64,000 nucleotides of DNA from an uncultured Gemmatimonadota bacterium (lineage in GTDB: Bacteria > JAAXHH01): the NCBI GenBank assembly GCA_951812955.1, contig OX638340.1, forward strand, positions 3,328,001 to 3,392,000, read 5' to 3'. The position numbers and the translations under genes are program-made. The notes under the pieces were generated by a model. The model worked only from the letters and a program-made list of their open reading frames with translations. It searched no databases and had not been told where the DNA came from. This document shows, piece after piece, positions 30,468 through 52,790 of the stretch; the first letter of the stretch is position 1, and each line of letters begins with the position of its first letter.

Positions 30468-30532
30468 GCGTCAGTAGCCGTCCCGGACGCTGTTTTGTAT
30501 TTTCAACAGGTCCCTCGCCGGGTATATTTCCT

Positions 30533-30568
30533 GTACCTGGTTACTGTACCTGGTTCAGGTACCTGGTG
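30533..30568. repeat. Three tandem 13-bp direct repeats GTACCTGGTT(nnn) immediately upstream of phoB
   Basis: ctGTACCTGGTTactGTACCTGGTTcagGTACCTGGTgg, about 85 bp upstream of the phoB ATG. Confidence 0.7.
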
Positions 30569-30653: not shown

Positions 30654-31331
30654 ATGCGCCATACGATACTGGTCGTAGACGACGAACCGGATATCGTGGA
30701 AATTATCCAGTATAACCTGGAGAAATCGGGCTTCGACGTCACCGTTGCGGCGGACGGACCCACCGCCGTTGAAAAAGCCCGCGACGAGACCCCCGATCTC
30801 ATCGTGCTCGACCTCATGCTGCCCGGGCTTGAAGGCACCGATGTATGCCGGATTCTGAAACAGGACGACCGCACGAGATCCATTCCCATCCTGATGCTCA
30901 CCGCGAAAAGCGAGGAAATCGACCGGATCATCGGCCTCGAACTGGGGGCGGACGACTATGTGGTCAAACCCTTCAGCCCCCGGGAGATCGCGCTGCGCAT
31001 CCGAAACATCCTGCGCCGTCGCTCCGCGCCGGATTCCCCGGGCCCGGTCCGGGCGGGTCCCCTGGTCATTGACGTGGAAGGCCATCACGTGTCCGTATCG
31101 AACCGTACCGTATCCCTGACGGCCACCGAGTTCAAATTACTGGCCATTCTATATCAGCGCCGCGGCAGGGTGCAGACGAGAGAGGAACTGCTCGACGTGG
31201 TGTGGGGATATGATTACATGGGGTACGGCCGTACCGTAGACGCCCACATCAAGCGCCTCAGAGAGAAACTCGGCGAGGCCAGCGGCATGGTGGAAACGGT
31301 GCGCGGGGTGGGTTACCGCTTCACCAGGTAG
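30654..31331 (+). CDS. phoB: OmpR/PhoB-family response regulator (probable phosphate regulon regulator)
   Basis: Receiver domain (ILVVDDEPDI, LIVLDLMLPG, T and K present) plus winged-helix trans_reg_C (LTATEFKLLAIL...YRFT). Context: adjacent phoR-like kinase, pstCAB-phoU and ppk within 15 kb. Confidence 0.75.
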   Translation: MRHTILVVDDEPDIVEIIQYNLEKSGFDVTVAADGPTAVEKARDETPDLIVLDLMLPGLEGTDVCRILKQDDRTRSIPILMLTAKSEEIDRIIGLELGADDYVVKPFSPREIALRIRNILRRRSAPDSPGPVRAGPLVIDVEGHHVSVSNRTVSLTATEFKLLAILYQRRGRVQTREELLDVVWGYDYMGYGRTVDAHIKRLREKLGEASGMVETVRGVGYRFTR

Positions 31332-31339: not shown

Positions 31340-33202
31340 ATGCGATTTTCGCTCCAGACAAAGATATTGGTAGGCTACGTCGCCTTCACCCTGGTGGTGG
31401 CGGCCGCGGTGTACATCTACCTGAACACTTCCCTGCGCGCGGATGTCAGCGGCCATACCCGGCAGCAGTTGCTCAACGACGCGCGCCTGATCCAGTCCTA
31501 CCTCGAAAACACGCCTCTCCAGTCGCTTGCCCCCGGGACGATCGATCCGATCGCCGACCGGCTGGGCGAGCAGTGCGGCGCCCGGGTCACCGTGGTGAAG
31601 GACGACGGCGTCGTGGCCGGTGATTCGTCCATCCCCCTTTCCTCCGTTCCCCTCATGGAGAACCATGGCGACCGGCCGGAAATCCTGGAAGCCGTCGCGT
31701 CGGGCATCGGAAATAGCATTCGCTACAGCAATACGCTGGAAACCGACATGGCCTACGTGGCCGTCCCCTTCCGGACCGAACGGGCAAGAGGCGTCGTACG
31801 CGTCGCCCTGCCGCTACAGCAGTTCCAGTGGATCGAGTCCCACATATGGAAGATCGTGCTCGCGGCCCTTGGCATCGGCCTCGTGTTGAGCGTTGTGTTG
31901 AGCTGGGGCACGGAAAGACTGGTATCCCGTCCGATCGAACGCATGACGGAGGTCGCTCGGCGCCAGGCTGCCGGCGATCTCACGGTCACGGCTTCCGCGC
32001 CAACGCACGTCGAACTGTCCTCCCTGGCGGCCGCCCTGAACGAAATGGCCGCGCAATCAAAGGAAAGGCTTTCGCAGATCCGGGAAGAAAACGCCCAGCT
32101 CGAAGCGGTGCTGTCCGGCATGGCGGAAGGCGTAATGGTGACCTCCGCGGAAGGGCGTATCCTGATGGTCAACCCGGCTTTCAAGCGCATGATGGACGTG
32201 GACGCATGGTGCCTGAACAAGCGGCCCATCGAGGTAGTCCGCAACCACGACCTGCAAAGCGTTGTGGAGGCCGCGATCGATTCGGCGCCCTCCCTGCACG
32301 AGGATGCCGTGATCGACCTGACGCTGGAGTGGAGCCAGCGCATCTTCCAGGTGCATCTGACCCCTATACGCATCGGCGAGCGGCTTCATGGCGTGGTTGC
32401 CGTGTTTCACGACATGACCGAACTGCGCCACCTGGAGCAGGTTCGGAAAGACTTCGTGGCCAACGTGTCCCACGAACTGCGGACGCCCCTGACCTCCATC
32501 AAAGGCTATGTCGAAACGTTGCTGGACGGCGCCATGGAGGATTCCGACGCGCTGCGCCGATTTATGACGTCCATCCAGCACCATGCCGACCGGCTGCAGG
32601 CGCTGGTCGAGGACCTTCTGCAACTGTCCAGAATAGAGTCGGGCCGGTACGAGGTCGAATTCACGGCCTGCCACCTGGACCGGGTTTCGGAGCGGGTCGC
32701 CGAGATCTTCGCGAAGCAGATCGACCGCAAGCAGCTTGTTTTCTCGTTGCGGTTCGAAACGGACAACCCGGCGCGCGGAGACCCCGAACTCATGGAACGG
32801 GCCCTGTCCAACCTGGTGGACAACGCCGTGAAATACACGGAGAAAGGCGGATCGATCGCCATCCGCACCGTGGAAAGGGACGACGAAATCATCCTGTCGG
32901 TCGCCGATACGGGACCGGGCATACCGTCCGATGCGCTCCCACGTATTTTCGAACGCTTTTTCCGGGTGGACCGGGCACGGTCCAGGGCGCTGGGCGGAAC
33001 AGGCCTGGGTCTCGCGATCGTCCGGCACACCATGGAATTGCTCGGTGGCAAGGCATGGGTCGAGAGCAGGCTCGGCGAAGGCGCGACCTTCTACCTTTCC
33101 CTGCCCGTGTGGGCGGAGGATGAGCAAGCCGGCGATTCGAACCGTGCGCTTCGGACGGCGCGGGAAGAAAACCCCGAAACCCCAACGGGCAGTCAGGCTT
33201 AA
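31340..33202 (+). CDS. phoR: Sensor histidine kinase (PhoR-like; TM-periplasmic-TM, HAMP, PAS, HisKA, HATPase_c)
   Basis: H-box VANVSHELRTPLTSIKGY, N-box LSNLVDNAVKYT, G-boxes DTGPGIP and GGTGLGLAIV. PAS region LEAVLSGMAEGVMVTSAEGRILMVNPAF. Confidence 0.75.
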   Translation: MRFSLQTKILVGYVAFTLVVAAAVYIYLNTSLRADVSGHTRQQLLNDARLIQSYLENTPLQSLAPGTIDPIADRLGEQCGARVTVVKDDGVVAGDSSIPLSSVPLMENHGDRPEILEAVASGIGNSIRYSNTLETDMAYVAVPFRTERARGVVRVALPLQQFQWIESHIWKIVLAALGIGLVLSVVLSWGTERLVSRPIERMTEVARRQAAGDLTVTASAPTHVELSSLAAALNEMAAQSKERLSQIREENAQLEAVLSGMAEGVMVTSAEGRILMVNPAFKRMMDVDAWCLNKRPIEVVRNHDLQSVVEAAIDSAPSLHEDAVIDLTLEWSQRIFQVHLTPIRIGERLHGVVAVFHDMTELRHLEQVRKDFVANVSHELRTPLTSIKGYVETLLDGAMEDSDALRRFMTSIQHHADRLQALVEDLLQLSRIESGRYEVEFTACHLDRVSERVAEIFAKQIDRKQLVFSLRFETDNPARGDPELMERALSNLVDNAVKYTEKGGSIAIRTVERDDEIILSVADTGPGIPSDALPRIFERFFRVDRARSRALGGTGLGLAIVRHTMELLGGKAWVESRLGEGATFYLSLPVWAEDEQAGDSNRALRTAREENPETPTGSQA

Positions 33203-34450: not shown

Positions 34451-34504
34451 ATACCAAACTTAAAAAGGGTCCTGGCCGGCCCTTATAAGGATCCTTTCTC
34501 CCCT

Positions 34505-36772
34505 TCAGGCTTCCGTCCTGCCCTTCAAAGGAGCCGTCCTCCCCTTCAGGCTTCCGGCCCCACGCGTACGAGCGCGTTTCGAGCCGTTGTTGACCCTGAC
34601 CGTTTCACAGGCCTGTTCGTATAATTCCCTCTGAGACTGTAAACGACTACCCGCCTTCTTCACGTACCGGTACGTTCCATCCGACTGCAATTCCCGCGCC
34701 TTCACGTTGTCCTTCAACTGGATTTTCAAATACGCCCACAGTTCCGCCTGGAGCGCACGGTCGACGACCGGGAAGGAAACTTCAACGCGCCGGTTGAGAT
34801 TCCGGTCCATCCAGTCCGCGCTGGAAAAGTAATACTCCGGGTCTCCGTCGTTGTAGAAATAGAAGAGGCGGACGTGTTCGAGAAACCGGTCGACGATGCT
34901 GATGACGCTGATGTTCTCGCTCAGACCCGGAACACCTGGTCTCAGGCAGCATATGCCCCGAATGATCAGCTGAATCTGCACGCCGGCCTGTGACGCCTGG
35001 TACAGCTCGACGATCATGTCCGGGTCGACGAGCGAATTGATCTTGGCGATTATGAGGGCCGGCTGGCCGTTTCGGGCCCGCTCGCTTTCCCTCCGCAGCC
35101 TTTTAACCATGTCCTCCCGCATCGACGTGGGAGAAAGGATGAGGTGGTGAAAGTGCTTGGGCAGCGCGTAACCCGTCAGCAGGTTGAACAACTGCGTTAC
35201 GTCCTCGCCGAATTCCTCCTTGTCCGTGAACAGGCCGAAATCGGCGTATATCCGTGCCGTCTTGTCGTTGTAATTCCCCGTGCCCAGGTGACAGTAGCGG
35301 TGAATTGCGTCGCCTTCGCGGCGCACCACCAGGCAGGCCTTGCAATGGACCTTTATGCCTGGTATGCCGTAGATGACGTGGGCCCCCGCTTCCTCGAGCT
35401 GCCTTGCCCACTGGATGTTCGCCGCCTCGTCGAACCGGGCCTTCAATTCCAGCAGCACCGATACTTCCTTGCCGTTTTCCGCCGCCCGGGTCAGCGCCCG
35501 TGTAATCGGCGAGTTTGCGCTCACTCGGTACAGCGTCATCTTGATGGCGAGCACGCTGGGGTCTTCCGCCGCTTCCGAAACGAAACGGACTACCGCGTTG
35601 AACTGATGGAAGGGGTGGTGCAGCAGGATGTCTTCCTTCTTGATGGCGTCCCATATGGAAGGGGCTCCCTCGAAGGACATCGCCGGCTGGGGCGGGAAGG
35701 GTTCGTCCATGAGATCCGGCCGGTCGATGGCATCGTAGAACTCGATGAGATCGGAAAAGGCGGTGAAACCCTCCGTGGGGTAAAGGTCCTCCTGCTCCAG
35801 TTCCAGTTCGTCCACCAGGATGTCCAGGACGCGGGTGGATAACTCCGGATCGTACTGCAGCCGGACGGCAGCCCCGTTTCGCCGGTTTCTTATGCCCTCC
35901 TCGATGACCGTCAGCAGGTCCTCCGCGCCTTCCTCCTCGTAGTCCACGTCGGCGTCCCGCGTCACGCGGATCGACGCGCAGTTCAGCACCTCGTAGCCGT
36001 TGTAGAACAGGTCGAGGTTCATGAGGATGACGTCCTCCAGCATGAAGAACGCCTGCCGGCCGTTCTCGGACGGTAGTTCGAGGAATCGCGGCATGACGGA
36101 TGTGGGCAGGTGGATGACTGAAAGGTTTGTGTGGGGAAAGACGGACCGCTGGATCTTCCGGATTTCAGCCACCAGGCAGAGCGTGCCGTTGGCCAGGTAG
36201 GGAAAGGGATGTCCCGGGTCTACCGCCAGCGGGGTCACCACGGGCAGTATGGTCTTCCGGAAGTACTCGTCCAGGTAGGCCTTCTGCGAAGGGCTGAGCT
36301 GTTCGGGCTTGAGTATGTCGATGCCCTGCTCGGTGAGCTGCGGGAAGATCTCGTTGATGAACAAGCCGTGCTGCTTGTTGACCAGTTCGTGCATCCTGGC
36401 CGAAAGGGCGGTCATCACCTCTCTGGGACTCAGGCCGTCCGCGGTCCGCGTGGATTGGATCTGCGCATCGATCTGTCTTTTGACGCCGGCGACGCGGATC
36501 ATGAAGAATTCGTCCAGATTGGTACTGAATATGGCCAGGAACTTCACTCGTTCCAGCAGGGGCACCGACGGATCGAGCGCTTCCTCGAGCACCCGCGCGT
36601 TGAACTCCATCCAGCTGAGTTCCCGGTTGAAGAAGTGCTCCGGGCGCCAGTAGTTCGTCACCAGCGGTGCCGTGGACGGCCGGGGCTTTCGGGTGAAGCG
36701 CCGGCCGGCTCGCTTAGAGGCGATGGTTCGAACCGTTGCGGTCCTGGCGTTGTTTCTTTTTGCAGTTGGCAT
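34505..36772 (-). CDS. ppk: Polyphosphate kinase 1
   Basis: The N-terminal FFNRELSWMEFNARVLEEA motif is diagnostic of PPK1, and the two PLD-like C-terminal domains follow. Start chosen at MPTAKRNN (the ORF-track start at 36802 is also possible). Confidence 0.9.
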   Translation of the reverse strand: MPTAKRNNARTATVRTIASKRAGRRFTRKPRPSTAPLVTNYWRPEHFFNRELSWMEFNARVLEEALDPSVPLLERVKFLAIFSTNLDEFFMIRVAGVKRQIDAQIQSTRTADGLSPREVMTALSARMHELVNKQHGLFINEIFPQLTEQGIDILKPEQLSPSQKAYLDEYFRKTILPVVTPLAVDPGHPFPYLANGTLCLVAEIRKIQRSVFPHTNLSVIHLPTSVMPRFLELPSENGRQAFFMLEDVILMNLDLFYNGYEVLNCASIRVTRDADVDYEEEGAEDLLTVIEEGIRNRRNGAAVRLQYDPELSTRVLDILVDELELEQEDLYPTEGFTAFSDLIEFYDAIDRPDLMDEPFPPQPAMSFEGAPSIWDAIKKEDILLHHPFHQFNAVVRFVSEAAEDPSVLAIKMTLYRVSANSPITRALTRAAENGKEVSVLLELKARFDEAANIQWARQLEEAGAHVIYGIPGIKVHCKACLVVRREGDAIHRYCHLGTGNYNDKTARIYADFGLFTDKEEFGEDVTQLFNLLTGYALPKHFHHLILSPTSMREDMVKRLRRESERARNGQPALIIAKINSLVDPDMIVELYQASQAGVQIQLIIRGICCLRPGVPGLSENISVISIVDRFLEHVRLFYFYNDGDPEYYFSSADWMDRNLNRRVEVSFPVVDRALQAELWAYLKIQLKDNVKARELQSDGTYRYVKKAGSRLQSQRELYEQACETVRVNNGSKRARTRGAGSLKGRTAPLKGRTEA

Positions 36773-37067
36773 TACCAGGTCACCAGAGATGATTGCGGAC
36801 ATGCGGCGCGTGACGGTCTCGCGCGCACTACCGCATCACGAATGCTGTTCAGATGTCAGCGGACCGGACGGGACCGGATTGGGCCAGACCGGGCCGGATC
36901 AATATGAATTGCGCCCCGGTCCGAGTAACAATAAAGCGGGACGCAAGGCGATGTTGTCAAGCCGTCTTTACCCTGTCGATCGTGTCTAACAAGAAAAATG
37001 CACATTAGTCATATCGTCATTGCGCCGTCATGGTTTTGTCATTCGACATCGTTATAATAAGCCGTGA

Positions 37068-37613
37068 ATGAACGAAGAACTGACAAAGAATCGTGGAGAA
37101 GTCATGCAAAAGAGTCGTGGCGAAGTCATGAAAATGAATGAAGTGTTGGATGTACTTAAAGGAAGCCTGGCCAAGGTAGACGGCATGAAGTTCTTGCTGG
37201 ACTACGAGGATCTCATCTGGCGCATGGCGCCGAACGCCCAATCCGTACAGGCGTTGCTGGAAGATATGGTCGACGCGGAACAGCAACTCTGGTCCGCCCT
37301 GCTGCCAGGGTGCCTGGAATCCCGGCAACGCCGCATCTTTCAAGATCGTCTCCGCGAACGGAATCGATTCTGGCAAAAGAACGACAACCGCCTCGGCATT
37401 TTCAACCAGTTTCTCAGCAACCGGCGCATTACGCTGCTTCTGCTCGAAGATTTAGCGGGAAATGACTGGAACAGGAATGCCCCCGACGGAATGGATGAAG
37501 GATCCGTCGTCGACCAGGTCGATCGCCTGATCGAGCGCCAGAACCAGTGCCTTACCATGATCCAGGGGATACTGAACGAGCGGTTCGAAGCAATGAAGAA
37601 AAGCGCCGTATGA
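37068..37613 (+). CDS. Hypothetical protein, no recognisable family; lies in a lower-GC patch (start uncertain, possibly MKMNEV at 37129)
   Basis: 181-aa ORF, predicted largely helical. The N-terminus carries a duplicated RGEVM from a 21-bp direct repeat. Codon usage is less GC3-biased than the neighbours. Confidence 0.4.
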   Translation: MNEELTKNRGEVMQKSRGEVMKMNEVLDVLKGSLAKVDGMKFLLDYEDLIWRMAPNAQSVQALLEDMVDAEQQLWSALLPGCLESRQRRIFQDRLRERNRFWQKNDNRLGIFNQFLSNRRITLLLLEDLAGNDWNRNAPDGMDEGSVVDQVDRLIERQNQCLTMIQGILNERFEAMKKSAV

Positions 37614-37664: not shown

Positions 37665-37726
37665 CTGTCCTTGTCATGGCCTTGTATGCTGTTCGTCACA
37701 GAATCGTCAAACAACCTCTTTATAAT
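37665..37726 (+). promoter_or_regulatory. Candidate Pho box: four TGTCA-like half-sites phased exactly 11 bp apart, ending 9 bp upstream of a perfect TATAAT -10
   Basis: TGTCA at 37672, TGTAT at 37683, CGTCA at 37694, CGTCA at 37705 (plus CTGTCC at 37665). TATAAT at 37721-37726. There is no -35 hexamer, as expected for PhoB-activated promoters. Confidence 0.5.
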
Positions 37727-37816
37727 GCCCGTGTCAATCATGTCTATCATACCAGACTCTCGCATAAAACACGCCTGCAATCGGGTTCATAGAACACAAA
37801 CAGAGGGAGATGCCGC

Positions 37817-40759
37817 ATGACGAATGTCTACCTGTTCTGCAATAACCGGATCTCGAAAACCGGGCCGGGCCGTGTGGCCAGGTCGATGCTCGTCGCAGTG
37901 ATCGCCGTCGCGGTCCTGGTGGGCGCGGCCGCGGAGGCCGGCGCACAGCAGTCCGTGGGCCGCATATCCGGAACGATAGTCGACGCGGAGACCGGCGATT
38001 CCCTGATCGGCGCGACGGTGATGGTGGTGGGACTCGAACTTGGCGCGATGGCCGATCTTGAAGGCGCCTTTCTCATCCGAAACGTCCCCGCCGGCCGGCA
38101 CACCATCCTGGTATCCATGATCGGGTACGGGCAGAAGCGGGTCACCGAGATCCAGGTCGACCCCGGACAGGTGAGTCGAATAGACATCGCCGTCGAGCAG
38201 GAACTTCTCGTGGCGGACGTGGTTGAGGTGACGGCCCGGGCCCTGGAAAACACGGAAGCGGCGCTTCTGAAGCGCCGTCAAAACGCCCTTTCCATCAGTG
38301 ACGCCATCAGCGCGGAGGATATCTCGCGGGGCGCACAGGGCGACGTGGCCGCGGCCATGACCCGCGTCACCGGCGCGTCGGTGGTGGACGGCAAGTACGT
38401 CTACATTCGAGGTCTGGGCGAACGGTACAGCACCGCGCAGTTGAACGGCACGACCTTGCCGAGTACCGATCCCAACAGCCAGTCGGTGCAGATGGATATC
38501 TTCGCGACGAACCTGCTGGACAACATCACCACGGAGAAGTCCTTTACGCCGGACAAACCGGGCAACTTCACCGGCGGCAGCGTCAACGTCAAGACCAAGT
38601 CGCTTCCCGAGTCCTTCACCATGTCTTTCTCCACGTCCACGAAATACAACTCCCAGTCTTCCTTCAAGGACATGTTGAGTTACGACGGCGGTGAATACGA
38701 TTTCCTGGGCTTCGACGACGGCACCCGGGATATACCCCTGCCCCTTCAGAATCCCGAGTTGGATATACCCAGCATTACCAGTGCGTTCCGGGACCCGGAA
38801 GCCGCCCAGTTGCTGGATCTCTATTCCAAGTCGTTCGCAGATAAGTCGATGACGCCGACCACAATAAAAGGCGGACTCGGTCAGAGCTACTCATTTTCGA
38901 TGGGAAACCAGACGACGGTTTTCGACCGCCCGTTCGGGATGTTGGGAAGCGTGAGTTACAATCGAAACATTTCGGCGTACGAGAACGGCGTTTCCGGTAT
39001 ATGGAAACGCGTGTCCAGGGAATCCGAGGGGCTGAACAGAGAGCGGTTCGCCACGGACATGAGCGGTTCCGAGGAGGTGCTCTGGGGCGGACTGTTAAAC
39101 GCCACCTACCAACCGAGCATCACGCACGAAATCGGCGCCAACGTGCTATACAATCGCAGCGGTGAGAAGCTGTCCAGGTTTCAAACCGGCGCCTGGCCTT
39201 CCTCCCTGCCCGGCGACAACGTTCGGTACGAGACCCGCGTGCTGTCCTTCATCGAGCGTGAAATGCGTTCCCTGCAGTTCCGCGGCAAACATGTCCTTCC
39301 GTCCGTATCCAACATGGAAATCGAGTGGACCGGCGCTTTCATCAGGTCTACGCAGGACGAACCGGACCTGCGCTACTTCACCAACGAGTTCCGGACGGTC
39401 GACGCGGCCGGCGAAGGAACTCCGGAAGTGGACAGCTATACAATCGCGCTCTCGAACTACGCGGCACCGACGCGATACTTCAGGAATCTGGAAGAATCGA
39501 ACAGGGACTTCAGGCTGGACCTGACGCTGCCTTTCTCCCAGTGGTCCGGACAAACCGCCCGCCTCAAGGTAGGCGGCGCATACCTGGACAAGGACCACAC
39601 CTTCCGCGAGAGACGCTTTTCCTTCTTCCAGGACGACTTGCAGTACAGGAACGATCCATCAGTCTTCTTTTCCTCCGATCGCACCGGGATACTGCCGGCC
39701 GAGCTCCAAACCACCCCCGGCTTTACCCGGTTCGGGAATTTCGTGTCCGAGGATTCCAAACTCAGAAACAATTACGACGGTGATCAGCAAATCGGCGCCG
39801 GTTACCTGATGCTGGACCTGCCGCTCAGCAGGCAACTCAAGGTCGTTGGCGGCGTCCGCTACGAGTCCACCCTGCTGGACGTGGTCAGCCACGACGATTT
39901 GCTTTCGCCAGGCAGCATGGACGAGAAGGACTGGCTACCGTCGATGAACGTGGTGTACCAGGTCGTGGACGACATGAATGTACGAGGCGCTTTCAGCCGT
40001 ACCCTGGCCAGACCTTCGTTCCGCGAACTTGCGCCGTTCGCTTCCTTCCTCTTCGTCGGCGACTACACTTTCGTCGGCAACAGCGAGTTGAAGCGAACCC
40101 TTATCGAGAATTACGATCTCCGCTGGGAGTGGTTTTCACGGCCCGGCGAGATATACGCCCTCAGCTATTTTTACAAGAAGTTCGAAAACCCGATCGAGCG
40201 CGTGATTGTAACCACGAACGGCGAAATCCAGTTTCAGAATGTCGACAATGCATATGTTACGGGCGTGGAAATGGAATTCCGGAAGCAGCTCGACCAGGTC
40301 CATCCGTTTTTGAGCAACTTCCAGATCGGCGGAAATCTCTCCCTGGTCAGGTCCCAGGTGGATATCGCGCAGTCGGAACTCGCCATTATTCGAGCTCTCG
40401 ATCCAACCGCCGGGGACTCCCGAAAATTGCAGGGCCAGTCACCCTACGTGGTAAATATCGATGCCATGTACGACAACCTCGATACCGGGACCCTGGTCAG
40501 CGTTCATTACAACGTGTTCGGCGAAAGACTTGCCGAGGTCAGCACGGGCGGAACGCCGAACGCCTTCGAGCAGCCCGCGGGCATGCTCGATTTCACGGGC
40601 TCGCAGCGGCTCGGAGACCGGGTGACGCTGAAGTTTTCGGCCAAGAACCTCCTCGATCCCGACATCAAGAAAGTCCATCCCTTCAACAACGCGGAGTTCA
40701 TCCGCAGCCTCTACAAGCGGGGAAGAACGTTTACCCTGGGTCTCTCATACGGGATATAG
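37817..40759 (+). CDS. TonB-dependent outer membrane receptor (SusC/RagA-like) with N-terminal carboxypeptidase-regulatory-like domain
   Basis: Signal peptide, then a CarbopepD_reg-like beta-sandwich (GRISGTIVDAETGDSLIGATVMVVG...AGRHTILVSMIGY). Plug region (ISDAISAEDISRG...TRVTGAS...YIRGLGERYS). 980 aa total, consistent with a 22-strand barrel. Confidence 0.85.
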   Translation: MTNVYLFCNNRISKTGPGRVARSMLVAVIAVAVLVGAAAEAGAQQSVGRISGTIVDAETGDSLIGATVMVVGLELGAMADLEGAFLIRNVPAGRHTILVSMIGYGQKRVTEIQVDPGQVSRIDIAVEQELLVADVVEVTARALENTEAALLKRRQNALSISDAISAEDISRGAQGDVAAAMTRVTGASVVDGKYVYIRGLGERYSTAQLNGTTLPSTDPNSQSVQMDIFATNLLDNITTEKSFTPDKPGNFTGGSVNVKTKSLPESFTMSFSTSTKYNSQSSFKDMLSYDGGEYDFLGFDDGTRDIPLPLQNPELDIPSITSAFRDPEAAQLLDLYSKSFADKSMTPTTIKGGLGQSYSFSMGNQTTVFDRPFGMLGSVSYNRNISAYENGVSGIWKRVSRESEGLNRERFATDMSGSEEVLWGGLLNATYQPSITHEIGANVLYNRSGEKLSRFQTGAWPSSLPGDNVRYETRVLSFIEREMRSLQFRGKHVLPSVSNMEIEWTGAFIRSTQDEPDLRYFTNEFRTVDAAGEGTPEVDSYTIALSNYAAPTRYFRNLEESNRDFRLDLTLPFSQWSGQTARLKVGGAYLDKDHTFRERRFSFFQDDLQYRNDPSVFFSSDRTGILPAELQTTPGFTRFGNFVSEDSKLRNNYDGDQQIGAGYLMLDLPLSRQLKVVGGVRYESTLLDVVSHDDLLSPGSMDEKDWLPSMNVVYQVVDDMNVRGAFSRTLARPSFRELAPFASFLFVGDYTFVGNSELKRTLIENYDLRWEWFSRPGEIYALSYFYKKFENPIERVIVTTNGEIQFQNVDNAYVTGVEMEFRKQLDQVHPFLSNFQIGGNLSLVRSQVDIAQSELAIIRALDPTAGDSRKLQGQSPYVVNIDAMYDNLDTGTLVSVHYNVFGERLAEVSTGGTPNAFEQPAGMLDFTGSQRLGDRVTLKFSAKNLLDPDIKKVHPFNNAEFIRSLYKRGRTFTLGLSYGI

Positions 40760-40831
40760 CGCAGAATGACGACTTGCGGGGACGCTCGACCTTTTCAATC
40801 TCAACTGCCAGCTCAATTAAGGAGGAGTAGT

Positions 40832-43800
40832 ATGTTTCGGCGGAATGCCATCGCTGCAATTTTGGTATCGTTGTTTTTACCAGTCCTCGCAGAAGCACAA
40901 TCCAACCCGGTCGTTTCAGTCACAGACTCGGACATCGTGGGTAACGTGACCTTCACGTCGAACAACACGTACCTGCTCTCGGGCCTGGTGTTCGTGGAGG
41001 ATGGCGAGACGCTTACGATCGAACCCGGCACGGTGATCAAGGCGCGTCCGGCGGACGCCGACGGTGTGGTCTCGGCATTGATTGTAGCGCGCGGCGGGAA
41101 GATCTTTGCTGACGGTACGGCGATGGATCCCATCATCTTCACGGCCGAGGCCGACAATGTGGACGATCCGGACGACATCCTGCTCACCTCGGAAGCGGCC
41201 TCGCGGGGGTTGTGGGGCGGCGTGATCATCCTGGGCAGGGCATCGATCAACGCGGCCACGGGCATGAACAACATAGAAGGCATAGACACGACTGAGCCGC
41301 GGGGCATCTACGGCGGCGGCTCGTTCCCCGACGATAACGACAACTCGGGCGTGTTTCGCTACGTGTCGATCCGCCACGGCGGCGCGCGGATCGGAGCGGA
41401 CAACGAGATCAATGGGCTGACGATGGGCGGCGTGGGGCGTGGCACGACGATAGAGCACGTGGAGGTGTTCTACAACCAGGACGACGGGTTCGAGTGGTTC
41501 GGGGGCACGGTGAATACGCGTTACCTGGTGGCGGCCTTTGCCGGCGACGACAGCTTCGACTACGACGAGGGCTTCCGCGGTGAGCACCAGTTCTGGTTCT
41601 CTATCCAGGATCCGGCCGTAGGCGACCACGCCGGCGAGCACGACGGCGGCACCAAGCCGGAGGATGGCAGGCCGTACGCCAGTCCCACGATCCTGAACGC
41701 CACGTACATTGGGCGGGGCGCTTCCTCGATGGGGGGCAAGGCGAATAACGCCCTGATCTTCCGCGACAACGCGGGGGGCATGTATTTCAACAGCATCTTC
41801 ACCGAGTTCCAGGGCCGGATGCTGTCGATCGAGGACCTCGAGGGCAATGCGGGCACGGACAGCCGCGCGCGTCTTGAGGCCGGCGACCTTGCGTTCCAAA
41901 ACAACATCCTGGGTGCCTTCGGCGCGGGCAACACGCCATCGCAACTCGCCGCCGAGTCCGAGGATCACACGGCCATGGTGCTTTCAGATCCCGGGAACAT
42001 GATCCGAATCGTAGATCCACAATTGCAGGGCATCAACTGGAACCGCAACCGGGGGCTGGACCCACGACCCGGTACCAACAGTCCTGCCTGGGATGCGAGC
42101 CAGCTCAAGGAAGAACCCCGGAACACCGGGTTCTTTACGGACGTCGATTACGCAGGGGCATTCGGTACGGAAAACTGGGCGGCGGACTGGTCGGCCCTCG
42201 CGGACCTGGGCTATTTCAGCACCGCACCTCCACCCGAGCCGCCGGAGCCCGGGGTTGTTACTGTCACAGACTCGGACATCGTGGGTAACGTGACCTTCAC
42301 GTCGAACAACACGTACCTGCTCTCGGGCCTGGTGTTCGTGGAGGATGGCGAGACGCTTACGATCGAACCCGGCACGGTGATCAAGGCGCGTCCGGCGGAC
42401 GCCGACGGCGTGGTCTCGGCATTGATTGTAGCGCGCGGCGGGAAGATCTTTGCCGACGGTACGGCGATGGATCCCATCATCTTCACGGCCGAGGCCGACA
42501 ATGTGGACGATCCGGACGACATCCTGCTCACCTCGGAAGCGGCCTCGCGGGGGTTGTGGGGCGGCGTGATCATCCTGGGCAGGGCATCGATCAACGCGGC
42601 CACGGGCATGAACAACATAGAAGGCATAGACACGACTGAGCCGCGGGGCATCTACGGCGGCGGCTCGTTCCCCGACGATAACGACAACTCGGGCGTGTTT
42701 CGCTACGTGTCGATCCGCCACGGCGGCGCGCGGATCGGAGCGGACAACGAGATCAATGGGCTGACGATGGGCGGCGTGGGGCGTGGCACGACGATAGAGC
42801 ACGTGGAGGTGTTCTACAACCAGGACGACGGGTTCGAGTGGTTCGGGGGCACGGTGAATACGCGTTACCTGGTGGCGGCCTTTGCCGGCGACGACAGCTT
42901 CGACTACGACGAGGGCTTCCGCGGTGAGCACCAGTTCTGGTTCTCTATCCAGGATCCGGCCGTAGGCGACCACGCCGGCGAGCACGACGGCGGCACCAAG
43001 CCGGAGGATGGCAGGCCGTACGCCAGTCCCACGATCCTGAACGCCACGTACATTGGGCGGGGCGCTTCCTCGATGGGGGGCAAGGCGAATAACGCCCTGA
43101 TCTTCCGCGACAACGCGGGGGGCATGTATTTCAACAGCATCTTCACCGAGTTCCAGGGCCGGATGCTGTCGATCGAGGACCTCGAGGGCAATGCGGGCAC
43201 GGACAGCCGCGCGCGTCTTGAGGCCGGCGACCTTGCGTTCCAAAACAACATCCTGGGTGCCTTCGGCGCGGGCAACACGCCATCGCAACTCGCCGCCGAG
43301 TCCGAGGATCACACGGCCATGGTGCTTTCAGATCCCGGGAACATGATCCGAATCGTAGATCCACAATTGCAGGGCATCAACTGGAACCGCAACCGGGGGC
43401 TGGACCCACGACCCGGTACCAACAGTCCTGCCTGGGATGCGAGCCAGCTCAAGGAAGAACCCCGGAACACCGGGTTCTTTACGGACGTCGATTACGCAGG
43501 GGCATTCGGTACGGAAAACTGGGCGGCGGACTGGTCGGCCCTCGCGGACCTGGGCTATTTCAGCACCGCACCTCCACCCGAGCCGCCGGAGCCCGGGGAA
43601 CCGGAAGAAGAAGCGCCGGACGCGTTCAGCCTGTCGCAGAACAGTCCGAACCCCTTCGGCATGACCACGAATATAGAGTACGCAGTATCTTCGACGAGCC
43701 ACATACTGATCGAGGTGTACAACATTCGGGGCCAGCGGGTAGCCATGGTCGTTAACGATATCAGGCTTCCGGGGCAGTACTCGGAGATATGGGACGCTCA

Positions 43801-43897
43801 GCACCTTTCAAGCGGCGTATATTTCTACCGCTTCGAGGCTACGGCGGATGGGCGGACCGCCCACGTTTTTAACAGGAAGATGACGCTTCTGAAGTGA
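40832..43897 (+). CDS. Large secreted cell-surface protein with two near-identical 448-aa repeats (beta-helix-like) and a C-terminal T9SS type A sorting domain
   Basis: AAGGAGG RBS and a signal peptide (MFRRNAIAAILVSLFLPVLAEAQ). The repeat body is rich in GxxGG/DDGFEWFGG/GDDSFDYDEGF beta-solenoid-like motifs. The C-terminus (SPNPFGMTTNIEY...GVYFYRFEATADG...KMTLLK) is a por secretion CTD. Probably co-transcribed with the upstream TonB receptor (72-bp gap). Confidence 0.75.
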   Translation: MFRRNAIAAILVSLFLPVLAEAQSNPVVSVTDSDIVGNVTFTSNNTYLLSGLVFVEDGETLTIEPGTVIKARPADADGVVSALIVARGGKIFADGTAMDPIIFTAEADNVDDPDDILLTSEAASRGLWGGVIILGRASINAATGMNNIEGIDTTEPRGIYGGGSFPDDNDNSGVFRYVSIRHGGARIGADNEINGLTMGGVGRGTTIEHVEVFYNQDDGFEWFGGTVNTRYLVAAFAGDDSFDYDEGFRGEHQFWFSIQDPAVGDHAGEHDGGTKPEDGRPYASPTILNATYIGRGASSMGGKANNALIFRDNAGGMYFNSIFTEFQGRMLSIEDLEGNAGTDSRARLEAGDLAFQNNILGAFGAGNTPSQLAAESEDHTAMVLSDPGNMIRIVDPQLQGINWNRNRGLDPRPGTNSPAWDASQLKEEPRNTGFFTDVDYAGAFGTENWAADWSALADLGYFSTAPPPEPPEPGVVTVTDSDIVGNVTFTSNNTYLLSGLVFVEDGETLTIEPGTVIKARPADADGVVSALIVARGGKIFADGTAMDPIIFTAEADNVDDPDDILLTSEAASRGLWGGVIILGRASINAATGMNNIEGIDTTEPRGIYGGGSFPDDNDNSGVFRYVSIRHGGARIGADNEINGLTMGGVGRGTTIEHVEVFYNQDDGFEWFGGTVNTRYLVAAFAGDDSFDYDEGFRGEHQFWFSIQDPAVGDHAGEHDGGTKPEDGRPYASPTILNATYIGRGASSMGGKANNALIFRDNAGGMYFNSIFTEFQGRMLSIEDLEGNAGTDSRARLEAGDLAFQNNILGAFGAGNTPSQLAAESEDHTAMVLSDPGNMIRIVDPQLQGINWNRNRGLDPRPGTNSPAWDASQLKEEPRNTGFFTDVDYAGAFGTENWAADWSALADLGYFSTAPPPEPPEPGEPEEEAPDAFSLSQNSPNPFGMTTNIEYAVSSTSHILIEVYNIRGQRVAMVVNDIRLPGQYSEIWDAQHLSSGVYFYRFEATADGRTAHVFNRKMTLLK
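40919..43606 (+). repeat. Intragenic tandem duplication, 2 x 1344 bp, near 100% identical (a few SNPs)
   Basis: Identical text from gtcacagactcggacatcgtgggtaacgtgacc at 40919 and again at 42263; both copies end at ...gagccgccggagcccgggg. The antisense ORF-track entries are duplicated accordingly (for example the 124-aa and 73-aa ORFs recur exactly 1344 bp apart). Confidence 0.95.
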
Positions 43898-44099
43898 TCC
43901 TGAAGCCGGCATAGTGGGCCGCAACCGGTATACTTCACCGATGCGGACCGTTCAGAGAGTCGATTGGGGCCTCGCGTATGTACTTATGCGGGGCCCTGTT
44001 GTTTTATACGGCGTTCCGCCGGGGTTGACGCGGTACGGGGCCACATCTATTTTTAACACGTTGCCCCCATTGTATCAATCCACTATCCAGGACTATCGG

Positions 44100-45230
44100 A
44101 TGACTGATCGCGCCCGGGGACGCCGGATTGACCGGCGCCGTCTGCTGGACTTACTGTTCGGTCGCCTGGCCGCACTGGGCGGTATTGCGCTGATACTGAC
44201 CATACTGGCGGTCTTTGCCGTGATACTGTGGGTCATTTACCCCTTGTTCCTGTCGCCCGCGGAATACCGCTGGGATACCCCCGGTCCCGATGGAATCGAG
44301 TCCGGATACGGCATCCTGCCCCTGATCTTCGGGACCCTGAAAGGCGCGGTGTACACCCTGCTTTTTGCGGTGCCCGTTTCGGTGCTCGCCGCGCTCTACG
44401 CGTCGCAGTTTCTGCCACGGTCGCTGAAGGAAAACCTGAAACCGCTGGTGGAAATCATGGCCGCGGTGCCGAGCGTCGTGCTCGGATTTATCGGCGGCAT
44501 ATGGCTCGCACCGTTCCTGGCGTCCCACGTTTTCGCACTCTTCCTCGCGCCGGTATTTATCGCAGGCACCGTTTTGACCGCTTTTCTGGTCAGACACCAT
44601 GCCCCGGTCCGGTTTCTGGTATTTAATCATCCGGGCAGGGAATTCTGGCTGCTCCTGGCCGCCGTGTTGGCCGGGGGATGGCTGGCCCTGGAATGCGGGG
44701 CGTTGCTTGAGGCCGCCTATCTGCATGCGGGCTACGAAACGTGGCTTGAAGAATCCCTGGGACTGACCTACGAGGAACGAAACGCGATTGTCGTGGGTAT
44801 GGTCATGGGGCTGGCGGTGACCCCGATCATATTCACCATATCCGAGGAAGCGCTTTCCGCTGTGCCCCGTTCGTTTTCTGAAGGATCCATGTCGCTGGGG
44901 GCCTCACGCTGGCAGACCGCCATACGCATCGTCCTTCCCGCCGCGGGCGCCGGGATCCTGTCCGCCGTCCTGCTGGGATTCAGCAGGGCGATCGGGGAGA
45001 CCATGATCGTGCTGTTTGTTTCGGGCAATGTCCCGGCCATGGACTGGTCCGCTTTCTCCGGGTTCAGGGCGCTGTCCGCCAACGTAGCGCTCGAATTGCC
45101 GAACGCTGCGCGGGACGACAGCCTCTACCGGGTCCTGTTTTTCGCCGCCTTTCTCCTCCTCGTTTCGACTTTTGCGATTAACATCGTGGCCGAACTGGTT
45201 CGACGACGACTGAGACGGCGGTATGCCTAA
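44100..45230 (+). CDS. pstC: Phosphate ABC transporter permease PstC (long form)
   Basis: 6+ TM helices and an EAA-like loop (GASRWQTAIRIVLPAA). Order pstC-pstA-pstB-phoU. Start taken at MTDRARG; the ORF track extends to 43914. Confidence 0.8.
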   Translation: MTDRARGRRIDRRRLLDLLFGRLAALGGIALILTILAVFAVILWVIYPLFLSPAEYRWDTPGPDGIESGYGILPLIFGTLKGAVYTLLFAVPVSVLAALYASQFLPRSLKENLKPLVEIMAAVPSVVLGFIGGIWLAPFLASHVFALFLAPVFIAGTVLTAFLVRHHAPVRFLVFNHPGREFWLLLAAVLAGGWLALECGALLEAAYLHAGYETWLEESLGLTYEERNAIVVGMVMGLAVTPIIFTISEEALSAVPRSFSEGSMSLGASRWQTAIRIVLPAAGAGILSAVLLGFSRAIGETMIVLFVSGNVPAMDWSAFSGFRALSANVALELPNAARDDSLYRVLFFAAFLLLVSTFAINIVAELVRRRLRRRYA

Positions 45231-45265: not shown

Positions 45266-46693
45266 ATGGGTTCGAAGTGGTCAAAGGATGACGCCTTGAT
45301 CTGGTTGTCCGGGGGGGGTCTGGTCCTCGGCTGCCTGATGGTGGCGGGACTGTTCCTGGTGATCGTCGTACATGGACTGGACCGGTTCTGGCCCCAGGAC
45401 CTGACACGGTACACGCTGCACGACGGCGGGGTTGTCCTGGGCCACGAGGCGTCCCGTGAGGACGTACTTACAACCAACGCCAGGGGTGAGCGTTCTGTGG
45501 CATACCGTTTGAGGATCCGGACCGGTGACCGGGACCGGTATCCGGACGACTACGTCTGGCTGGAGGAAGGCCGCGTCACTTGGCGGGATGTCCCACGCGA
45601 GGCCGTGGTGGTGGAACAGGTTCGGGGCGGGGACTTATTCGGATTCCTGGATTCCTTCGTGGACGATGGCACGGTCGTCGCCCTGGGTTACGATGACGTC
45701 TGGGCACTTTACCAGGAGGGGTACCCGGAACTGGAACGGCTGCGCCGGCAGAGGTCGCTTTCTATCGTCCTGTCTTCGGCGGATGGCCGGCCGAGCACCA
45801 TTTCACTTGCTGACGTCCAGCGGATCTATACGCCAAATGCGATGACGGCGTGGACAAGGATCCGCCACTATATGGCCAGTGCGTGGTCCTACCTGTGGGC
45901 GCCCCCGCGGGACGAAAACCGCCAGGGCGGGGTCTTTCCTGCTGTCTTCGGCACGGCGGCGATGGTCATCCTCATGTCGGTCGTTGTCATGCCCTTCGGC
46001 GTGCTCGCGGCCTTCTACCTGAGAGAATACGGAAAACCGGGTCCGTTCCTGAACGCGGTACGTATCGCCGTAAACAGCCTGGCCGGAGTGCCGTCCATCG
46101 TCTTCGGGGTTTTCGGGCTCGGTTTCTTCGTGTATTTTGTGGGAGGCATCCTGGACCGTCAGTTCTTCCCGGAGGCACTTCCGGGACCGACATTCGGCCG
46201 GGGCGGCATCCTCTGGTGCTCACTGACCCTGGCCTTGCTCACATTGCCCGTGGTCATCGTGGCCGTGGAGGAAGGCCTGGCCGCCGTGCCATCGGGACTC
46301 CGCGAAGCGTCCCATGCCCTGGGTGCGACGCGGTTCGAGACGCTTTGGCGCGTCGTCGTACCCGTGGTGCTGCCATCCATTCTCACGGGTCTGATCCTGT
46401 CCGTGGCGCGGGCGGCCGGTACCGTGGCGCCGCTCATGATCGCCGGGGTCGTCGCCTTTTCTGCCGATTTGCCCGTGGACGGCGAATGGCCGTTCGTGCA
46501 CCTGGATCGCGAGTTCATGCACCTGGGATTTCATATCTTCGACACCGGTTTCAGGCCCGGCGAAGGAGATGCGGCGCTATCCATGGCCTACACTTCCACC
46601 CTGTTGCTGCTGGCCATCGTGGTCGCACTGAACGCGGCGGCGATCGGGCTCAGAAGCCGGTTGAGGAGACACTATTCGCTGGCCGCGCCATAG
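45266..46693 (+). CDS. pstA: Phosphate ABC transporter permease PstA (long form)
   Basis: EAA loop ([15 protein letters not shown]); position between pstC and pstB. Confidence 0.8.
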
Positions 46694-46766: not shown

Positions 46767-47564
46767 ATGACGATGGAAAATGCGCCGTTCACGCCGAAGA
46801 TCATGCGCGAAGAAACAATCATCGATGTCGAGAACGTGTCCTTCTGGTACGGGGACAGGGCCGCGCTGAGGAACGTTTCCATGGCGATCGATCGCCATGT
46901 CATCACGGCCTTCATCGGACCGTCAGGCTGCGGCAAGACGACATTGCTGCGGCTGTTCAACCGCATGAACGACCTGGTTCCCCAGACCCGCATGACGGGA
47001 TCGATCCGGATGAACGGAGCAGACATCTACGGCCCGGATACCGACGTCACGCGTCTGCGCCGGCGCGTGGGCATGGTCTTCCAGCAACCGAATCCCTTTC
47101 CCAAGTCGATCTATGAGAACGTAGCCTATGGCCCCCGAATCCATGGGGTGAAGTCCGGGGAATTTCTCGACGAGATCGTGGAACGGTGCCTGCGAAGGAC
47201 GGTGCTGTGGGACGAGGTTCAGGATCGGCTCGAAGAAAGCGCGCTCAAACTCTCCGCCGGACAACAGCAACGGCTTTGTATCGCGCGGGCGGTCGCCGTC
47301 GAACCGGAAGTCCTGCTCATGGACGAGCCGTGCTCGTCACTGGACCCGGTCGCCACGTCCAGGATCGAGGAATTAATGCTTGATCTGAAGGATGATTACA
47401 CCATTGTTATCGTGACACACAATATGCAGCAGGCAGCGCGTGTGTCGGAATACACCGGGTTCATGCTCAAGGGCGAACTGGTGGAAATGGGTGTGACCGA
47501 CGTGATGTTCACCACGCCGGGGGACCGGCGCACGGAGGATTACATTACGGGTCGTGCGGGATAG
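46767..47564 (+). CDS. pstB: Phosphate ABC transporter ATP-binding protein
   Basis: Walker [10 protein letters not shown], signature LSAGQQQRL, Walker B LLMDEP; about 265 aa as in PstB. Confidence 0.9.
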
Positions 47565-47595: not shown

Positions 47596-48300
47596 ATGGA
47601 GACCCACCTTCAGCAACAACTGGAAGACCTGAAATCCGCCCTGCTGAGGATGGCGGCGCTGGTCGAGGAACAGATCGCGCGGTCGATTACCGCTATGATG
47701 GAGCGGGACGTGGAATTGTGCGACCAGGTCATCCGCGGAGATCAGCCCATTGACGCCATGGAACTGGAGATCGACGATCAGTGTATCAGGTTGCTTGCTC
47801 TCCAGCATCCCATCGCGCGGGACCTTCGCTTCGTTGCGGCCAGCATGAAGATTACGATCGACCTGGAACGGTTGGGCGACATCGCAGTCAACATCGCCAA
47901 GAAAACGAAACGGCTCGTGGGGATGCCCCTCCTGAAACCGATCGTCGACATTCCGCGCATGGCCGAAATGTCCCAGTCCATGGTGAAGGACAGCCTCAAC
48001 GCCTTCGTCCGCGGAGACGAGCAACTGGCCGTGGACGTCTGCGTAAGGGACGAAGCGGTAAATCAACTGCAGGACCAGGTCTTCCAGGATCTGGTGACTG
48101 CCATGGTGGAAGATTCGGCGACGGTGCCCCAGGCGCTCCAGTTGATCTTCATATCCCGCCACGTCGAACGGCTCGCAGATCACGCCACGAACATCGCCGA
48201 AGGGGTGGTGTATTTCTCAGAAGGCCGCGTGATCAAGCATCATGGGAATGACGATCCGAATCAGCCACCCAATCGTCCAGTATCCGGTGGGCCTGCGTGA
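47596..48300 (+). CDS. phoU: Phosphate signalling complex protein PhoU
   Basis: Two PhoU repeats (E/DxxxD metal-binding motifs: DQVIRGD, ELEIDDQ and VCVRDEAVNQ). Follows pstB. Confidence 0.85.
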   Translation: METHLQQQLEDLKSALLRMAALVEEQIARSITAMMERDVELCDQVIRGDQPIDAMELEIDDQCIRLLALQHPIARDLRFVAASMKITIDLERLGDIAVNIAKKTKRLVGMPLLKPIVDIPRMAEMSQSMVKDSLNAFVRGDEQLAVDVCVRDEAVNQLQDQVFQDLVTAMVEDSATVPQALQLIFISRHVERLADHATNIAEGVVYFSEGRVIKHHGNDDPNQPPNRPVSGGPA

Positions 48301-52312: not shown

Positions 52313-52328
52313 GATCGAACCTCCTTTT

Positions 52329-52742: not shown

Positions 52743-52790
52743 AGATAGCCTCCAATTCGACCTGCAATGCCTGGTTCCGCATAAAATCTC

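Follow-up and report, generated by a model that had tools for sequence, protein, structure and literature searches.

A phosphate-linked TonB-dependent receptor and its two-module beta-helix surface partner in an uncultured Gemmatimonadota bacterium: a probable ElpS/FII-type pair

What is a TonB-dependent receptor (TBDR) doing among the phosphate genes of an uncultured Gemmatimonadota bacterium, and what is the large secreted protein encoded directly behind it? The question is raised by a 64,000-nucleotide stretch of contig OX638340.1 (assembly GCA_951812955.1, forward-strand positions 3,328,001 to 3,392,000; hereafter the window, about 60% G+C), in which the two genes lie between ppk1 and pstC. 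An earlier inspection of the letters without database searches, called here the sequence-only reading, had proposed a two-gene module induced by phosphate starvation, in which a surface-tethered protein feeds a TonB-energised importer inside a Pho island that has no pstS. Our analysis leads to a related answer: with a probability that we put at about 0.7, the pair is a Pho-regulated receptor with a cation-dependent beta-helix surface partner for the uptake of a phosphorus-bearing ligand, of the type represented by ElpS, FII and BT4056, and by analogy with that probable family the earlier proposal of a tethered partner for a TonB importer would be well founded. The features of the pair itself are as follows.

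37817..40759, + strand: TBDR, with CarboxypepD_reg, Plug and 22-strand-type barrel (PF13620, PF13715, PF07715, PF00593, PF14905)
40832..43897, + strand: surface protein of 1021 aa, with signal peptide, two Beta_helix_4 modules with Pro-rich linkers, and type IX secretion system (T9SS) type A C-terminal domain
40909..42252, + strand: tandem DNA repeat copy 1 (module 1)
42253..43596, + strand: tandem DNA repeat copy 2 (module 2), 5 of 1344 nt differing from copy 1
43646..43897, + strand: T9SS type A C-terminal sorting domain (PF18962 on residues 961-1026 of the 1043-aa open reading frame (ORF); TIGR04183)

The surface protein starts at ATG 40832, after an AAGGAGG ribosome-binding site and 72 bp past the TBDR stop; this gap and the T9SS domain are as first described, while the length from that start is 1021 aa and not 1022. 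Its 448-aa repeat, which the sequence-only reading could not assign to a known family by eye, is the recent Pfam family PF28492 (Beta_helix_4), a right-handed beta-helix. Searching with a single module retrieves over 7,900 proteins, of which the typical orthologue is 548-577 aa long and consists of one module and a T9SS tail, and the closest named genomes are metagenome-assembled genomes labelled Latescibacterota or Gemmatimonadetes, at 77-81% identity. An exhaustive profile search yielded 4,410 cluster representatives (50% identity) at E<=1e-30; the 329,914 matches at E<=1e-3 were set aside, since the profile contains the T9SS tail and this inflates the low-stringency count. The AlphaFold2 model of the module is again a right-handed beta-helix (predicted local distance difference test 91.7, predicted template-modelling score 0.93), and over its ~450 aa the module has the right-handed parallel course of the pectin-lyase fold (IPR011050). 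The nearest solved folds are polysaccharide lyases, epimerases and tailspikes, at 8-14% sequence identity. Foldseek returned no PDB structure at E<=1e-3 and the family profile matched no PDB sequence, which indicates a known fold without a solved relative, and Pfam at E<=1e-3 placed no pectate-lyase, GH28 or other beta-helix enzyme family in the module. Profile and structure searches have thus given the 448-aa repeat a fold, though not that of a phosphatase, phytase or nuclease, and these three candidate identities for the surface protein are rejected on the beta-helix fold and on the biochemistry of ElpS (PMC2996285). The window protein is a T9SS-anchored, two-module form of this known family.

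What might such a helix do at the cell surface? In the family alignment nine acidic residues are invariant and occupy three successive rungs (D196, D197, E200, D218, D219, D222, D224, E248 and D250), within the motifs DDGFEWFGG, GDDxFDYDEG and GEHDGG. This conservation points to a ligand or metal site over a purely structural helix, and the cluster represents a concrete candidate site for metal or ligand binding. The module is further related, at 30-35% identity and E-values of 1e-30 to 1e-50, to proteins of Parabacteroides, Phocaeicola, Bacteroides finegoldii, Pseudoalteromonas, Alteromonas, Marinobacter, Sphingomonas and Indioceanicola. In the three of these contexts that were checked (Indioceanicola, Pseudoalteromonas and Parabacteroides) a TBDR gene adjoins each homologue, and its product is 26-28% identical to the window TBDR over the full length. 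Around the Indioceanicola homologue (E 1e-50) the order is lipoprotein, TBDR, gspN, gspD, which is the arrangement at elpS. A second homology search, started from a Bacteroidaceae homologue, gave metagenomic relatives only. Taken with the published accounts below, the weak homology and the synteny make it most probable that the window pair belongs to the family that includes ElpS/CC0171, Fjoh_0546/0545 ('FII', PUSIV) and BT4056/BT4055.

The three named pairs bring experiments to the question. In Caulobacter crescentus, ElpS (CC0170/CCNA_00169) is an outer-membrane lipoprotein of ~50 kDa that appears under phosphate starvation and is released with the aid of the type II secretion system (T2SS), its gene adjoining the TBDR gene CC0171 and gsp genes; overproduction of ElpS raises alkaline phosphatase activity in the supernatant, and the purified protein is inactive as a phosphatase (PMC2996285). 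Induction of elpS is PhoB-dependent (PMC5172544). The window pair shares with ElpS/CC0171 the adjacent TBDR gene and the size of the module, each window module being ~48 kDa and ElpS equal to one Beta_helix_4 unit. ElpS is an N-terminal lipoprotein released with the T2SS, whereas the window protein combines an ordinary signal peptide with two modules and a T9SS domain. Low-phosphate, PhoB-dependent induction and outer-membrane exposure were demonstrated for ElpS, whereas the window offers the Pho-box arrays described below.

In Flavobacterium johnsoniae, the TonB-dependent transporter (TBDT) Fjoh_0545 (pf07715, pf13715, pf14905) and the lipoprotein Fjoh_0546 (FII, recognizable by its pectin-lyase fold only) are encoded in a phoBR-oprP cluster and rise by log2 8-10 on depletion of inorganic phosphate (Pi), Fjoh_0546 by ~10; FII is a major exoprotein and is 31-36% identical to ElpS over about half its length (PMC8115612). 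Fjoh_0545 (PUSIV) has the domain set of the window TBDR; Fjoh_0546, like the window partner, has the pectin-lyase fold without an older Pfam assignment; and the setting among phoB, phoR and an OprP-like porin gene recurs at three of our context loci (L046, L070, L072). FII differs from the window protein in being a single-module lipoprotein, and the Fjoh pair stands outside any pst operon. The third pair, BT4055/BT4056 of Bacteroides thetaiotaomicron, is described by Price and Arkin as a TBDT and a putative lid whose gene proximity is conserved in 621 genera; these authors relate BT4056 to Fjoh_0546 and ElpS, and InterPro assigns it to the pectin-lyase superfamily (bioRxiv 10.1101/2023.03.17.533168). 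Here too a conserved gene pair is shared, found in Bacteroidota and Proteobacteria, and homologues from Parabacteroides, Phocaeicola and B. finegoldii are 31-34% identical to the window module. BT4056 was proposed as a lid with no phosphate link discussed, in contrast to the two-module, C-terminally anchored window protein. None of the papers that we found names the substrate of an ElpS/FII-type pair. In Caulobacter and Flavobacterium, few outer-membrane systems are induced by phosphate limitation as strongly as ElpS/FII-type pairs.

The pairing itself extends far beyond these examples. We compared gene contexts at 80 loci from species-representative genomes and at several metagenomic contigs, 77 of the loci not being close relatives of the window; at 62 of those 77 the orthologous TBDR gene lies directly beside the Beta_helix_4 gene, in either order. 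The logic resembles that of the SusCD and PusCD complexes of Bacteroidota, in which a surface partner captures substrate for a TonB-dependent barrel, and PusCD complexes are Pho-regulated as well (PMC8115612). The parts are different, however. The window TBDR is not of SusC type (TIGR04056 matches its N-terminal domain only, at 35.8 bits against a cut-off of 368), and its partner is a beta-helix with zero SusD Pfam matches, not a SusD-like tetratricopeptide-repeat protein. The nearest NCBIfam model for the receptor is TIGR01782 (TonB-Xanth-Caul), at 267 bits, below its cut-off of 310.

Is the pair under phosphate control in the window? Two promoter-like arrays lie between ppk1 and the TBDR gene.

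37015..37041, + strand: Pho-box array 1 (CGTCA 37015, CGTCA 37026, TGTCA 37037), in 11-bp phase
37053..37058, + strand: promoter 1 -10 element TATAAT, as read from the sequence
37104..37613, + strand: lineage-restricted helical protein of 169 aa under promoter 1 (listed as ORF181 from 37068)
37672..37711, + strand: Pho-box array 2 (TGTCA 37672, TGTAT 37683, CGTCA 37694, CGTCA 37705), at exact 11-bp spacing
37721..37726, + strand: promoter 2 -10 element TATAAT, with no -35 match, kept in relatives

The classical Pho-box promoters of Escherichia coli (pstS, phoA) carry TGTCA-containing direct repeats with an 11-bp period that replace the -35 element and end ~10 bp before the -10, and OmpR/PhoB-family regulators bind direct repeats spaced about one helical turn. 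The four half-sites of array 2, exactly 11 bp apart and followed by TATAAT without a -35 element, had been recognized from the letters and are as reported; the hexamer at the -35 position is ACAGAA and a sigma-70 scan calls no promoter. When four TGTCA-like 5-mers at 11-bp spacing were scored at every position on both strands of the 64 kb (maximum 20), array 2 scored 16 and was the sole four-site array reaching at least 15, against 0.02 expected per window in Markov-1 shuffles. Array 1, 650 bp upstream, scores at least 13 of 15, which no other three-site array in the window does (0.055 expected), and in both promoters a gap of 11 nt separates the last 5-mer half-site from TATAAT. Array 2 is conserved in five relatives (L001, L004, L005, L006, L087) and array 1 in two (L087, L007). 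When the sequences upstream of the TBDR gene in the window and in five relatives are aligned, the block tGTCATGgcCTTGTaTGcTGTTCGTaACAGAATCGTCAAAc...TTATAAT is kept in four relatives while its surroundings are not, and a sixth relative (L087) retains it too; the conserved block at promoter 2 spans ~65 bp and its flanks diverge. An array that is improbable by chance and preserved between diverging flanks agrees with the PhoB-type architecture that had been claimed, and the promoter of the pair is supported as a predicted Pho-box promoter with at least two TGTCA-core repeats of 11-bp period in place of the -35, ~10 bp before the -10. It differs from the E. coli promoters in having YGTCA half-sites without the AT-rich spacer consensus. 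Array 1 is predicted to drive the gene of the 169-aa helical protein, which has six homologues only, all in close relatives; neither this second Pho-box promoter (37015-37058) nor the near-identity of the two modules had been noticed in the sequence-only reading. An Rfam scan of 30-49 kb gave zero RNA families, so the 5' untranslated regions are not explained by a riboswitch or leader.

Between ppk and the Pho boxes lies a further, palindrome-like element, TTGTCAAGCCGTCTTTGAC (GTCAA...TTGAC, 36955-36975), which is conserved in the upstream regions of L004-L007 (alignment columns ~120-140) and whose right arm is degenerate (TTTAC) in the window.

Does the operator accompany the pair in more distant lineages? 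In the region upstream of the pair's first gene at 54 distant loci, the TGTCA-type Pho box is not enriched (2 of 54 at p<=0.05), and YGTCA half-sites are used by the window lineage only. The search therefore turned to TTAAC-type repeats. CTGTCAT is the half-site of E. coli PhoB and TTAACA that of Bacillus PhoP, and most other lineages of the Fibrobacterota-Chlorobiota-Bacteroidota (FCB) group differ from the window in carrying TTAAC(A)-type repeats that resemble the Bacillus PhoP box. Four TTAAC-like repeats in 11-bp phase precede the pair at 37 of the 54 loci (p<=0.05), compared with 1-3 loci at control periods of 9, 10, 12 and 13 bp. Because the motif had been selected by eye, a motif-free autocorrelation was added, in which lag 11 was the strongest local self-match in 23.5 of the 54 upstream regions against 4.5 in the coding control; this test and the period controls are independent of that choice. 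Two Opitutaceae loci show, as judged by eye, GTGAC-like repeats at 11 bp instead. Such four-fold PhoB/PhoP-type repeats in 11-bp phase, as they precede the pair at 37 of the 54 distant loci, are apparently undescribed in the literature that we searched. Conservation of the operator across FCB phyla and Opitutaceae makes the pair a candidate core member of the Pho regulon beyond the two model organisms.

The surrounding genes bear on the same question, and in particular on whether the pair stands in for a missing PstS.

30654..31331, + strand: PhoB/PhoP-family response regulator (Response_reg, Trans_reg_C), presumed activator of both Pho-box promoters
31340..33202, + strand: PhoR/PnpS-type sensor histidine kinase (HAMP, PAS, HisKA, HATPase_c)
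34505..36802, - strand: polyphosphate kinase 1 (ppk1), all four PPK domains at E 1e-40 to 1e-76, divergent from the Pho-box promoters
43965..43998, + strand: terminator-like hairpin, 14-bp stem with 8 GC pairs and T-rich tail, between the surface-protein gene and pstC
44025..44053, + strand: sigma-70-like promoter candidate, TTGACG-17-TATTTT, ahead of pstC, a weak consensus match only
44100-45230, + strand: pstC, its start set by orthologues beginning MTDR...
45266-46693, + strand: pstA
46767-47564, + strand: pstB (ABC_tran match)
47596-48300, + strand: phoU (PhoU match)

Pfam and NCBIfam matches bear out the inventory first given for the island (phoB, phoR, ppk1, the TBDR, the T9SS-tailed protein, pstC, pstA, pstB and phoU). 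The top NCBIfam match of the regulator is TIGR02154 (PhoB), at 256.7 bits under a cut-off of 296; the kinase reaches 405.9 bits with NF046044 (PnpS) against a cut-off of 400; and TIGR02138 and TIGR00974 match the pstC/pstA region above their cut-offs. With a terminator-like hairpin and a separate sigma-70-like promoter before pstC, the TBDR and surface-protein genes are fairly described as a two-gene module, although read-through into the pst genes is possible. The absence of pstS from the window also holds: over the 64 kb, tblastn with a PstS from L002 found no pstS-like ORF, and a hidden Markov model built from eight PstS sequences found none in the six-frame translation at E<=10. Weak tblastn matches at 59.5-61.5 kb proved to be a sulfatase and an amino-acid permease.

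The significance that this absence had seemed to carry does not survive comparison. The order phoB-phoR-ppk(-)-TBDR-Beta_helix_4-pstCAB-phoU is conserved in the window lineage, and none of its relatives has pstS within 10 kb. In other lineages the pair adjoins complete pstSCAB operons (L002, L018, L042, L043): at L002, pstSCAB and a porin gene are divergent from the TBDR and Beta_helix_4 genes, and at an Opitutaceae locus the pair is followed by pstS, pstS, pstCAB, phoU and phoB. In two relatives at 77-78% identity (L001, 11734-12124; L007, 11653-11719) pstC and pstA have been lost from the interval that separates the Beta_helix_4 gene from pstB-phoU, so that pstB and phoU are all that is kept of the pst-phoU genes at this site. 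Given the complete pstSCAB neighbours elsewhere and these losses, the pair is not a PstS substitute; the survey ties it to phosphate genes generally, not to a PstS-less Pst system in particular. Besides the pair, the commonest clustered neighbours are the PhoB-like regulator, PhoR, PstS, PstC/A, PstB, PhoU, Ppk1, a PHO4-type transporter, a Na/Pi cotransporter and an OprO/P-like porin. Among loci of at least 15 kb, 20 of 40 have one or more of pstS, pstCAB, phoU, ppk, PHO4, Na/Pi and OprO/P-like genes within 10 kb, an approximate count given that the PstB cluster may contain generic ABC ATPases. It is phosphate genes that recur in these neighbourhoods, and no gene for a carbohydrate-active enzyme (CAZyme) or for sugar catabolism does so.

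Other genes recur near the pair in particular types of locus. A small MORN-repeat (YwqK-type) protein is encoded directly beside it in Bacteroidales-type loci (L046, L058, L066, L067, L070, L075 and, in P. distasonis, L086 8372-8842). Ignavibacteria-type loci repeatedly have an M28-family peptidase-like gene (~550 aa) placed between pstS and the pair (L016, L024, L030, L036, L068), and a T9SS-tailed phospholipase D-like protein (L030 1206-3545) recurs nearby.

How, then, might the pair work? A PhoB/PhoP-type activator, which is probably the product of the regulator gene 6 kb upstream, would bind the four 11-bp-phased YGTCA half-sites that replace the -35, and at low phosphate it would turn on both promoters, so that the TBDR and its two-module partner are made. 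The partner, which is very acidic, would be exported via Sec and the T9SS and presumably become surface-attached by way of the cleaved C-terminal domain. That the pair is induced at low Pi in dependence on PhoB, and that the partner is exposed at the surface, is expected here by analogy with the experiments on the named homologues, and for induction and production the sequence evidence from this locus points the same way. For the steps that follow we infer that the stacked acidic cluster on the beta-helix modules would hold divalent or trivalent cations, through which the modules could capture, and possibly cut, an extracellular phosphorus-bearing ligand and pass it to the TBDR. The receptor would then concentrate the ligand in the periplasm with TonB energy, and Pi, or a product freed by periplasmic enzymes, would enter the cytoplasm through PstCAB. 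Identifying the substrate would close a gap in models of how bacteria in soils and oceans scavenge phosphorus.

Several points weigh against this mechanism and the family assignment behind it. Deletion of ElpS gave no phosphatase phenotype, and cc0171 was reported to be constitutive in Caulobacter (PMC2996285). The case for membership of the family is built on gene order, fold, weak sequence homology to relatives of the named proteins in Bacteroidales and Alphaproteobacteria, and what the papers themselves state, not on direct alignment with ElpS, Fjoh_0546 and BT4056. Metal binding and ligand capture are argued solely from the conserved acidic residues. In the distant loci the TTAAC motif was picked from the same loci on which it was then tested, and the gene starts came from a crude longest-ORF caller. 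Finally, a glycan substrate is equally compatible with the fold, as the nearest solved structures are polysaccharide lyases, epimerases and tailspikes.

This last point leads to an alternative that we regard as possible, though clearly disfavoured: the surface protein could be a Ca-dependent polysaccharide lyase, a hydrolase, an epimerase-like enzyme or a glycan binder whose target is an anionic or phosphorylated polymer, for example teichoic acid, a phosphoglycan or an algal or plant wall polymer, with the TBDR importing oligomers and any gain in phosphorus being indirect only. The conserved ladder of Asp, Glu and Arg resembles the sites of Ca-dependent lyases, and the TBDR is nearest to the TonB-Xanth-Caul subfamily, which includes carbohydrate importers. 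It is essentially what Lidbury et al. suggested for FI and FII (PMC8115612). Yet the identity to solved beta-helix enzymes is as low as 8-14%, Foldseek and the Pfam search for pectate-lyase, GH28 and other beta-helix families were empty at E<=1e-3, and the neighbourhoods lack recurrent CAZyme or sugar-catabolic genes while phosphate genes recur.

A second alternative concerns geometry, and here the anchoring and repetition of the modules become relevant. The T9SS tail at the extreme C-terminus of the window protein is matched by PF18962 (28.1 bits, cut-off 27) and TIGR04183 (28.9 bits, cut-off 23), and with an N-terminal Sec signal peptide, read from the sequence, the protein has the two marks of T9SS type A cargo, Por_Secre_tail and signal peptide. 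It carries no lipobox: the N-terminus is MFRRNAIAAILVSLFLPVLAEAQ followed by S, and the protein, with an isoelectric point of 4.3, has zero cysteines anywhere. Over the 83 loci surveyed for anchoring, a T9SS tail is found in the window lineage, Ignavibacteria, Rhodothermia and Saprospiraceae, a lipobox in Bacteroidales, Cytophagales and others, and neither form in Opitutaceae. Among the loci examined, proteins with two, three or four modules in tandem are common, the proteobacterial homologues examined have two, and most of the top-ranking proteins in the exhaustive profile search contain two to six matched stretches and measure as much as 2403 aa. T9SS anchoring in place of a lipid anchor is apparently undescribed in the literature searched.

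Price and Arkin's proposal for BT4056, extended to this family, would make the beta-helix protein a SusD- or BtuG-like cap, sitting 1:1 on the outer face of the barrel and gating entry. In its favour are the tightly conserved gene proximity, both at our loci and in those 621 genera, and an AlphaFold-Multimer model that set BT4056 on the outer face of BT4055, albeit with few confident contacts (bioRxiv 10.1101/2023.03.17.533168). We consider a lid unlikely. Proteins with two to four tandem modules are common and some have more matched stretches; some lineages anchor the protein by an N-terminal lipid and others through a C-terminal T9SS domain, which leaves the module without a fixed geometry relative to the membrane; and ElpS is released into the medium (PMC2996285). 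Delivery by at least two routes and arrays of two to four modules argue against a simple lid and for tethered, multivalent capture or processing. Together with the release of ElpS, these features are more easily reconciled with a tethered protein that captures or processes its ligand than with a fixed lid, and at most one module could be lid-like.

The two window modules are themselves products of an in-frame tandem duplication of 1344 bp, 99.6% identical, with the junction in frame and carrying a Pro-rich linker; all 5 differences fall within the first ~205 nt, and the last 1142 bp are identical. The pattern is wider: across the 83 loci, modules that share a protein show 67-100% identity (e.g., L021, L062, L008, L037, L063), as opposed to 42-75% identity to modules of other genomes, and this holds even among four two-module Melioribacteraceae, in which positional orthology of the modules is at best faint. 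This likeness bears the signature of concerted evolution or repeated independent duplication. Such tandem arrays, of two to four modules at the loci examined, which appear to evolve in concert, are, as far as the searched literature goes, apparently undescribed. A bolder version of the phosphorus reading takes Beta_helix_4 not as a glycan enzyme but as a module that, loaded with Ca or Fe, captures inorganic or condensed phosphate (Pi, pyrophosphate, polyphosphate, metal-phytate or mineral-bound phosphorus), with the TBDT importing phosphate species and gene conversion keeping the modules near-identical for multivalent capture. We offer it as speculation to which we attach little weight; if true, it would mean TonB-powered concentrative phosphate uptake, distinct from the OprP/OprO porins, in the 4,410 clusters of the profile search.

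Near-identical repeats also invite the suspicion that the duplication is an assembly artefact and the true gene a single module of ~573 aa. The 98%-identical L003 (amino acid identity) and the orthologues at 77-81% are indeed single-module proteins of 571-577 aa, and the identical final 1142 bp of the copies would agree with that. On the other side, the copies differ at 5 positions across an in-frame Pro-rich junction, multi-module proteins are common family-wide, chromosome-level assemblies included, the 84%-identical L088 also has at least two modules, and the contig of L087 ends, and that of L088 begins, within the gene. Short-read assemblies tend to collapse such repeats rather than create them. 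On the strength of the L088 modules, the two contig ends and the family-wide tandem modules we judge an artefact quite improbable. That the protein neither binds a substrate nor imports one and instead activates or scaffolds an extracellular phosphatase independently of the transporter, as was proposed for ElpS when its overexpression raised supernatant alkaline phosphatase though purified ElpS was inactive (PMC2996285), is equally hard to credit, as no phosphatase gene recurs beside the pair in 83 loci and near-universal adjacency to one TBDR lineage argues for a joint function.

A few features of the wider window deserve mention. A 13-bp tandem repeat, CTGTACCTGGTTA (2.8 copies, 30531-30567), lies ~90 bp upstream of the phoB-like gene and may be an operator of the regulator's own operon, its period being 13 bp and not 11 bp. 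The 3' end of ppk1 contains a tandem repeat of 41 bp (and of 21 bp) at 34479-34556, which encodes a repeated C-terminal extension, ...LKGRTAPLKGRTEA. Farther downstream, positions 51788-63336 carry genes unrelated to the TBDR pair, first those of kynurenine and aromatic-catabolism type, for a kynureninase and an amidohydrolase_2 protein, and then those for a PhyH dioxygenase, a sulfatase, an amino-acid permease and a glyoxalase-fold dioxygenase, and in the matching region the relatives carry 3-hydroxyanthranilate 3,4-dioxygenase (3-HAO) too.

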